Source: Gemmatimonadota bacterium
GTDB lineage: Bacteria > Gemmatimonadota > Gemmatimonadetes > Longimicrobiales > RSA9
DNA: 48,037 nucleotides
Assembly (NCBI GenBank): GCA_040905425.1
Contig: JBBDRO010000100.1
Location: 184,402 to 232,438, forward strand
Reading direction: 5' to 3'
Positions 47,096 through 47,929 of this stretch are shown in pieces (positions within the stretch are counted from its first letter, which is position 1; each line of letters begins with the position of its first letter). The notes below the pieces were generated by a model. That model made no database searches and was not told where the DNA came from. It worked only from the letters and a program-made list of their open reading frames with translations. A program made the translations under genes and the position numbers.

Positions 47096-47422
47096 TCACC
47101 AGTCGTCGTCCTCCCAGGGACGACGGTCCGCCTTTTCCTCCAGCCGCCGCGCGCGCCGGAACTCCCGTTCGGCGGCCCGGTGACCGGTCGTGCACTCCGT
47201 GACCCGATTCACATCCGCCGAGCGGACCCGGACGTCAGCCCCGAACAGGTCCTGGAAGCGGAGCCAGCGCGGCGGCCGGAGCCGCTGCAGCTGATGGGCG
47301 ACGTCGAGTGCGGTTTCACGCGTCACGTAGAACCAGCCGCCGTCGCCTGCAATCTCCCAGAAATCCTCCTCGGGCCTCTCCTCCTCGGACTCTCCGAAGT
47401 ACTCCTTCAGCCTGTTGATCAT
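47096..47422 (-). CDS. Hypothetical protein (108 aa)
   Basis: MINRLKEYF...RRPWEDDDW with protein-like composition. Its stop lies 27 bp before the DIP1984-family start, suggesting an operon. Confidence 0.7.
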   Translation of the reverse strand: MINRLKEYFGESEEERPEEDFWEIAGDGGWFYVTRETALDVAHQLQRLRPPRWLRFQDLFGADVRVRSADVNRVTECTTGHRAAEREFRRARRLEEKADRRPWEDDDW

Positions 47423-47516
47423 GACTCCACGCTGGCTCGTTTCGACCGTTCTCGTGCCGGGCGGATGCACTCCGCGGTGACCCGCTGACGGCGCGGACGG
47501 CGTGCTGCATCGAGGG

Positions 47517-47929
47517 AGGGAGTCGCGTTGTCGCCTGCACCTCTCCGCATGGCGCCGCCGGCCGCCAGGGGCCCCGCTCAGGGCATACAAAACGCCCCAC
47601 CCGGGCACGCGGCACAGGTGGGGCGCGGTCATTTCGCCCCGGGATCGGAGGGTGCGCGCCTCAGCGCATCACGCCTCCCATCGGTCCTGCGCCACATTTT
47701 CGCCTGCGCCGTGAGCACTGCCACGACGCGCACGGCTGCAAGCGGGTGCCGTCGGCGCTCGGCCGGGGCTCCGCTCGTCCGTGCTTGCTGAATCGATGCT
47801 GCGTCATGGCTCCAGTCTGGTCGTGGGCCGAAAATGAAAAACGCGCCGCCGATGGCCATCCGCCGAACCTTCGGCGAGCCGCCCACGCCACGAACGGCGA
47901 GGGGGTTGGACATCGGGACGCGACTCCCT
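47517..47929 (-). ncRNA. Putative ~410-nt structured leader / regulatory RNA
   Basis: Perfect 12-bp terminal complementarity (47918-47929 with 47517-47528) and many internal hairpins. Begins just after a predicted promoter. Confidence 0.5.
47587..47625 (-). terminator. Intrinsic terminator-like hairpin inside the leader
   Basis: CGCCCCACCU/GGGUGGGGCG 10-bp stem followed by UUUUGU. Confidence 0.5.

Follow-up and report, generated by a model that had tools for sequence, protein, structure and literature searches.

In the account of whiB7 given in 10.1101/2023.06.02.543512, efficient translation of an upstream open reading frame (uORF) leads to an intrinsic terminator and translation stress to an antiterminator, with a feedback in which the WhiB7 protein acts on its own promoter. 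Descriptions of bmrCD and mgtCBR (PMC4191407, PMC3641672) report ribosome-mediated attenuation before efflux genes, and two attenuators within one leader. At the orf45-anrP locus of the Salmonella prophage Gifsy-1, as presented in PMC4825925, the short terminated RNA IsrK acts in trans on its own locus and activates it, and c4 motifs are listed in PMC2864571 for Proteobacteria and phages. The rsr-yrlBA-rtcBA RNA repair operon is described in PMC7790460 as controlled by RtcR, a sigma54 activator that binds tRNA fragments.

We analyzed a 48,037-nt stretch (the window) of contig C100 in a Gemmatimonadota genome (G000), which carries on its minus strand a leader that is partly c4- and IsrK-like in its layout, whiB7-like in its predicted sensing, and a member of neither family. 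Throughout the family the order of parts is fixed: a promoter, a terminator-like hairpin (T1) with a near-invariant 15-mer (X) as its 5' arm, a poorly conserved uORF, a second terminator (T2) that competes with an antiterminator, then a long hairpin whose loop (a') is complementary to X, and the operon. We favor the reading, which sequence comparison makes on balance probable, that the leader is a two-stage transcription attenuator switching on an RNA-repair or translation-stress operon.

Layout and distribution of the leader

The window copy begins at a putative sigma70-type promoter (47967-47939, minus strand as for all features below), with a -35 box TTGACA (47967-47962), a 17-nt spacer and a -10 box TATCTA (47944-47939) whose last base is off consensus; a consensus promoter scan left this copy uncalled. 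Among 78 leaders the -10 box, chosen in each by best fit, has T, A and T at positions 1, 2 and 6 in 74, 75 and 77, respectively, and lies 6-15 nt before X. The leader is present as a single copy in G000 and heads two genes only, one encoding a 108-residue protein (47422-47096) and the other a DUF6847/DIP1984 family protein (47068-46598; Pfam E 9e-36, NCBIfam E 9e-38).

The initial annotation had drawn the region before the 108-residue ORF as one structured domain of ~410 nt closed by pairing of its ends, and as an attenuation or antisense switch. Both elements of such a switch are present, and the 507-nt region 47929-47423 folds better than shuffled sequence (z = -3.2; 0/100 shuffles as good). 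The smaller features described are all there: two hairpins (47899-47886 and 47876-47861), a U tract, a GGAGG/CCUCC hairpin and, at 47608-47592, a terminator-like stem. The end-paired fold itself fares less well: a 12-nt perfect complement (47929-47918 with 47528-47517) exists, but the predicted minimum free energy (MFE) structure leaves the ends unpaired with each other, and X pairs in it with the nearer strand 47854-47842, giving T1. Shuffling produces a perfect 12-nt inverted repeat in 347 of 1000 cases, so that such a repeat is unremarkable by itself, and the weight of the X/a' repeat lies in its conservation. A 10-bp complement (47810-47801 with 47729-47720) is also present but falls almost wholly inside a 48-codon uORF (47807-47661), and the region is to that extent coding. 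A coding role for the whole of it was rejected, as two overlapping frames of 178 and 94 residues are without a Pfam match and the start of the downstream protein at 47422 is shared by its homologues.

Sixty relatives of the 108-residue ORF were found, and the DNA around them (58 metagenome loci, and 30 loci from the 36 positive genomes among 401) has the same upstream elements in many loci. A gene-blind scan of the genome collection with the promoter-plus-X pattern alone, used to avoid gene bias, gave at least 120 matches; among the matches listed 108 are titled Gemmatimonadota, three 'bacterium', and nine other taxa. Seventy-four of the matches listed have at least 800 nt downstream, and T1, T2 and a' follow in order in 54 of these. 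The rest of this listed set have T1 and a' without a T2 match (3), T1 and T2 without a' (5) or T1 only (2), together with one called T2 only by the script (T1 is visible in its duplicate, L107), one divergent full leader recognized by eye, and eight apparent chance matches, four of which a loose script test for T1 had wrongly passed. Among 401 evenly sampled genomes of the phylum, 44 contain the X pattern (reversed control 0) and 59 the T2 pattern (reversed control 2). The statistics below use 78 de-replicated leaders of the 93 with T2, from 97 found by both routes; related genomes are non-independent, so that permutation and Fisher values overstate. One full leader with Rsr is on a contig titled Kofleriaceae (L158), the only full copy outside Gemmatimonadota among the named matches listed, suggesting either mis-binning or transfer.

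A phage origin was considered and rejected: relatives of the 108-residue protein are absent from the viral contigs searched, and the 40 viral pattern matches include no T2 (0/40) and no full leader. A c4-type or riboswitch match, for which the initial annotation had proposed a check, was not obtained either. The leader is without a match to Rfam cis elements and riboswitches at gathering score; the C4 and c4-a1b1 models have no match in the window, nor in 18 loci at E <= 0.5; and neither the C4 model nor that of IsrK (RF01394) matches at the leader in five genomes at E <= 10. In the P1 immI control, Rfam finds C4 and c4-a1b1 (68.8 and 51 bits) and a weak isrK match. The literature searched, chiefly open-access papers together with the supplement of one RNA-motif survey (PMC2864571), has no description of the leader. 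On comparative and computational evidence it is a real, conserved and apparently undescribed cis-regulatory RNA family of Gemmatimonadota.

The uORF and the predicted second terminator

The best-supported part of the leader is a module of uORF, antiterminator and T2 that the initial annotation overlooked. In 75 of the 78 leaders an ORF with an ATG start and 20 codons or more ends 26-56 nt ahead of T2, as against 9.9 +/- 2.8 in 200 shuffles, and the stops cluster 32-42 nt before T2. The uORFs are 19-126 codons long (median 67) with a median of 36 different codons, no dominant regulatory residue and a GC-driven composition; their peptides are unconserved except for an RNA-driven Gly-rich end, and by eye a clear Shine-Dalgarno sequence is missing before most of them. 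The stop is typically in a hairpin loop. In the window copy, T2 is a hairpin (47625-47593) with a U tract (the whole spanning 47625-47585), and the antiterminator (47697-47607) pairs 47697-47686 with 47618-47607 and 47640-47635 with 47625-47620, around a hairpin (47682-47644) whose loop contains the uORF stop codon. The T2 U tract has a mean of 6.1 T in 12 nt and a split form; the U tracts of T1 and T2 are both interrupted.

The T2 5' arm has a complement in a strand ~25-30 nt upstream of the uORF stop, and the two covary. On average this strand pairs with its own arm at -12.7 kcal/mol and with permuted arms at -11.0 +/- 0.19 (0/10000 permutations as good), with controls at -9.3 kcal/mol for shuffled windows and -8.6 kcal/mol for a window further upstream. 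A-U/G-C swaps are seen at two positions of the helix, in a pair table that is partly circular since folding was used to pick the partner. As long as the T2 3' arm is still to be transcribed, the antiterminator helix forms in 74 of 78 leaders, versus 53% of shuffles. For the whole module at equilibrium T2 beats the antiterminator in 73 of 76 homologues, the window copy being among the three exceptions, and the antiterminator would therefore have to act kinetically. The antiterminator of the window copy is the MFE structure (z = -4.3); the naked module folds as antiterminator there, and the RNA without the ribosome-covered part folds as T2.

These features make it very probable, as far as comparison alone can go, that T2 is a whiB7-type ribosome-mediated attenuator sensing translation stress. 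A ribosome that reaches the uORF stop would cover the 5' strand of the antiterminator, such that T2 forms and transcription ends, and translation slowed or stalled earlier, as by an antibiotic, a damaged or uncharged tRNA or a damaged ribosome, would let the antiterminator form first and polymerase enter the operon. The hallmarks of the whiB7 type that can be read from sequence are present: a uORF stop at a fixed place, an antiterminator that overlaps the uORF 3' end and excludes the terminator, and a hairpin followed by a U tract. The leader resembles whiB7/wblC of Actinobacteria, as those are outlined in the source above, in the predicted logic of a uORF of many codon types, a choice between terminator and antiterminator, and positive feedback on top. 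It differs in being a Gemmatimonadota leader without a visible regulator gene, in having an extra upstream terminator with a complementary RNA loop, and in its targets, RNA-repair genes and tRNAs. Its self-encoded antisense loop also sets it apart from bmrCD and mgtCBR, whose descriptions, in the parts consulted, mention none. An amino-acid biosynthetic attenuator was rejected, given the median of 67 codons with 36 codon types and no run of one regulatory codon.

Several further observations concern the coding potential of the leader. The uORF stop codons in 76 leaders are TAG in 44, TGA in 18 and TAA in 14; TAG at this frequency is unusually common for GC-rich bacteria, and the excess may reflect either loop structure or release-factor sensing. 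An additional first uORF starting at an ATG just after X was considered, as it is there in 53 of 78 leaders, but it has no conserved frame (20/18/13) or length and was rejected; ribosome binding at this ATG without a conserved ORF is possible. In one locus (L202) a T2-like hairpin and then a tRNA come directly after the promoter and X/T1, and a uORF seems to be missing.

X, the terminator-like hairpin T1 and the a' loop

T1 (47928-47831) is formed by X (47928-47914) as 5' arm and a 3' arm at 47854-47842, followed by a U tract (47841-47831), and encloses the two variable hairpins at 47899-47886 and 47876-47861. X is exact or near-exact also in the set selected by T2, which was chosen without X, and in the nascent RNA could form a hairpin of 4 bp with a 6-nt loop. 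The fold of T1 has z = -3.1, its upper stem covaries (best with its own partner, 0/10000 permutations), and the 12 nt after the stem have a mean of 6.5 T, compared with a T fraction of 0.17, in a split form as in T2. In most leaders the match between X and the 3' arm is imperfect.

The complement of X lies in an 11-nt loop (a', 47528-47518) of a long irregular hairpin (47567-47486). The loop is unpaired in 59 of 69 homologue hairpins, and the hairpin flanks pair best with their own partner (0/10000 permutations; window fold z = -2.05); this alignment-free permutation test was used because RNAalifold on a MAFFT alignment of the 69 hairpins gave no consensus structure. In all 68 leaders compared, a' is a stronger partner for X than the T1 3' arm is (-21.0 vs -13.5 kcal/mol). 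Of 12 a' variants, eight have a C-to-U change by which a G-U pair with X is retained, and the other four are mismatches, three of them at an end, in a search that allowed one mismatch; no compensatory X/a' double change was seen, the largest set having been found with a pattern in which X was constant. When loci were selected by T2 only (64 loci gave 66 strand matches, of which 53 passed filters for length and U tract), 26 had both X and a', 24 neither, 3 X alone and none a' alone, with the caveat that kin are non-independent and some of the 'neither' rows are possibly chance hairpins.

The a' loop is 309-702 nt after X, beyond both terminators, and the X-a' pair forms in cis in the predicted full transcripts of only 6 of 69 homologues, so that a' comes too late for the T1 of its own transcript and most likely acts in trans on new ones. 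As the first stage of the two-stage attenuator we propose that T1 would stop most transcripts near nt 100, and that the few passing both T1 and T2 would yield the a' hairpin, which would probably be processed to a stable RNA. The loop of this hairpin would contact the loop of the nascent X hairpin in trans, before the weaker T1 3' arm is made, and extend to 11 pairs. X bound in this way could not form T1, and the operon would be held on by positive feedback. Whether a' acts thus as a trans antiterminator of T1 we put at an even chance. If it does, it would be a natural small RNA that turns transcription on by blocking an intrinsic terminator, with self-amplifying feedback, a design known mainly from synthetic biology. 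The parts are short and modular, and the natural T1-only, T2-only and T1-plus-a' versions make each step separable in simple reporters.

The a' RNA could also turn on unlinked operons that have T1 only. Two T1-only leaders (L127, L148) have the promoter and T1 directly before a gene called Hen1-like by similarity to Hen1, and both genomes have a full a'-bearing leader elsewhere. The converse reduction, T1 and a' kept without the uORF and T2, is seen in L225. Of 13 genomes searched because one of their leaders is a'-less, four have a full leader elsewhere and nine none detectable, these being draft genomes searched with near-exact patterns. A trans regulon embracing every a'-less leader was accordingly rejected, as it holds for only 4 of the 13, and the nine genomes with X and no detectable a' imply that T1 can persist without a'. 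More tentatively, and at somewhat less than an even chance, the whole might constitute a protein-free translation-stress regulon, in which a ribosome-sensing attenuator gates a trans-acting antiterminator hairpin RNA for its own leader and for unlinked T1-only operons (e.g. hen1-pnkp), in the role that RtcR has elsewhere.

The persistence of X in those nine genomes also suits a different view of T1, which we think unlikely though it is the alternative to be taken most seriously. T2 would act as proposed, T1 would be controlled by an X-binding protein (e.g. Rsr/Ro60, the 108-residue protein or a general factor), and the X/a' complement would be secondary, a decoy or a processing aid. The invariance of X without covariation fits a protein site, and the weak Sm/Hfq-like matches of the 108-residue model (Z <= 4.4) offer a candidate. 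However, a' without X occurs in 0 of 53 loci, a' is kept single-stranded with mainly G-U-preserving changes, X lacks the GNCGAA Rsr motif as given in PMC4201824, and many leaders, the window copy included, are without rsr nearby. The missing motif, with the absence of an Rfam match, also led us to reject the T1 RNA as a Y RNA (YrlA/Yrn), within what that source describes. Nor was a good complement of X or a' found among rRNA and tRNA: in an 11.5-kb stretch around the 16S gene of a relative (100 bases masked, the operon perhaps incomplete) there are at least 2-3 mismatches, and among the G000 tRNAs there are only two one-mismatch 9-mers.

The trans action could run in the opposite direction, with the short T1-terminated RNA binding the a' loop of long transcripts and altering their processing, stability or translation. 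This is improbable, although PMC4825925 provides the precedent of short IsrK activating its own read-through mRNA. The leader shares with IsrK, as that paper presents it and by anatomy only, a promoter, a short terminated RNA with an a-type hairpin, and a read-through transcript with the complement; the a1 hairpin and isrK a-site consensus sequences resemble the X hairpin by eye, and in some loci a ribosome-binding site comes directly after the end of the a' hairpin. By the same account, though, the short RNA there is the regulator and acts on translation, whereas the a-type sequence of the leader is a terminator arm; moreover the leader is outside a prophage, with a uORF attenuator between its two parts. 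X is paired in the finished T1 RNA, and cofolding of the a' hairpin with that RNA, or with a 32-nt nascent piece, brings no gain in a program that cannot model loop-loop kissing; with a 62-nt nascent piece it gives -14.7 kcal/mol via a rearranged fold. Often a tRNA or a long spacer rather than a start codon follows the a' hairpin, and such tRNAs could free its 3' end.

The initial annotation had likened the locus to the P1 c4 and P4 CI RNAs, with a central sequence pairing to upstream and downstream sites in a phage-type immunity region. The layout bears this out in part, as in C4 of P1/P7 (RF01695, RF03163) and P4 CI an antisense loop in a long stem likewise lies downstream of its target hairpin in one transcript, and an upstream a1-type target complementary to the antisense loop is found in X and a'. 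The outer stems of C4 and of the a' hairpin are loosely alike, and remote kinship of the leader with C4/isrK is possible. But an Rfam match, a phage context and a conserved downstream target are all lacking, and it is RNA-repair genes that are regulated: the hairpin has one conserved loop and neither a second (b) loop nor a three-way junction, a2/b2 sites and icd/ant genes are absent, and the predicted sign is activation rather than repression. Negative control on the pattern of P1 C4 or P4 CI, with a processed a' hairpin shutting the operon down via termination, decay or blocked uORF translation, is very unlikely; CI does promote termination, as summarized in PMC4825925, but binding of X removes the T1 5' arm and should weaken termination.

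Scarcely credible is the remaining model, that of the initial annotation, in which cis pairing of X with a' closes a 410-nt domain and competes with a start-codon site: the complement is perfect and X-a' the stronger duplex, yet the MFE shows this pairing in only 6 of 69 homologues and not in the window copy, a' is missing in cis from T1-only loci, and the start-codon site is unconserved. The GACUCC/GGAGUC pairing beside the AUG is weak (-10.7 kcal/mol); GGAGTC occurs downstream of a' in 3 of 67 homologues, and 8-mers with one mismatch in 13 of 67, while exact 8-mers occur in none; L030, with a 95% identical protein, has GGAATC in its place.

Downstream genes and genome context

The genes that follow the leader were surveyed in those 52 leaders of the gene-blind scan, among the matches listed, for which 2.5 kb or more of downstream sequence is available. 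They include RtcB (24), the 108-residue family (22), Rsr (19), Hen1 (5), Pnkp (3) and DUF6847 (1), each cluster being named after a single representative, which for RtcB and for Rsr scores below the NCBIfam equivalog cut-offs. At least one of RtcB, Rsr, Hen1 and Pnkp is downstream in 35 of these 52 listed leaders, none of the six families in 12, and same-strand tRNAs lie within 3 kb in 14. These are the same kinds of genes, RtcB and Rsr, as in the RtcR-controlled operon, but an RtcR domain was found in none of the five leader-bearing genomes searched and was found in the E. coli control. The leader is thus a candidate for the control of RNA-repair operons in a phylum where RtcR was not found in these five genomes, and would tie RtcB, Ro60, Hen1-Pnkp and spare tRNA arrays to ribosome slowing. 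Leader-headed operons also contain tRNA-like matches of 120-135 nt, which may be Y RNAs. In G000 rtcB is on another contig without a leader and no rsr was found, and the window copy consequently heads a short operon. A cluster of 19 tRNA genes in G000 (C94:6070-8323) is behind a plain promoter without a leader; in relatives, tRNA arrays often follow the leader.

Leaders that lack a' and have the uORF/T2 module also head MATE pumps and DksA/TraR genes. By Pfam on representatives the module, with or without X, is at MATE genes in L279-L283, L305, L316, L319 and L321, and it is at DksA/TraR genes in L290, L291, L326, L327, L329 and L330 and at RtcB genes in L285, L298 and L299. The module would thus outline a wider translation-stress regulon, with MATE pumps, DksA/TraR paralogues and the 108-residue family as further candidates. 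This last, which travels with RNA-repair operons, matches no Pfam or NCBIfam family and the window protein no PHROG, an Atlas search returned unnamed Gemmatimonadota clusters only, and it is restricted to Gemmatimonadota in the searches done. Its structural model is a small beta-barrel with a long helix; fold searches gave nothing at Z >= 5 or E <= 0.001, and from the weak Sm/Hfq-like matches mentioned above the protein could be an RNA chaperone.

A non-coding stretch of ~200 nt after the DUF6847 gene (46597-46400) probably marks the end of the window operon. It has no Rfam match in the window but, in an alignment of six loci that includes one near-identical relative, has loose similarity to the corresponding stretch of other loci (L030, L035, L046, L082, L119), and is possibly a structured RNA (fold z = -1.97).

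A boxA-like 12-mer lies between T2 and the a' hairpin in 22 of 69 leaders (e.g. L125, L130, L135), and is absent in the window copy. The 16S gene of G300 has a similar word ahead of it, and G000 contains it three times, at two promoter-proximal contig ends and before a putative gene that we take to be that of RNase P RNA. This suggests an rRNA-type antitermination for long tRNA-rich operons.

The window ends at the end of contig C100, outside the leader and inside a short repeat (48037-47985) with an internal 18-nt direct repeat. Close copies are present elsewhere in G000 (C52:1-55 and C108:15678-15730 among them), several at contig ends, and the repeat, which has TTGACA at its end, is probably an IS end. 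In three places it is directly upstream of a native TTGAC promoter, and one of these, at the start of C52, precedes a His-rich leader peptide and a terminator (recognized by eye), suggesting that G000 uses attenuation.
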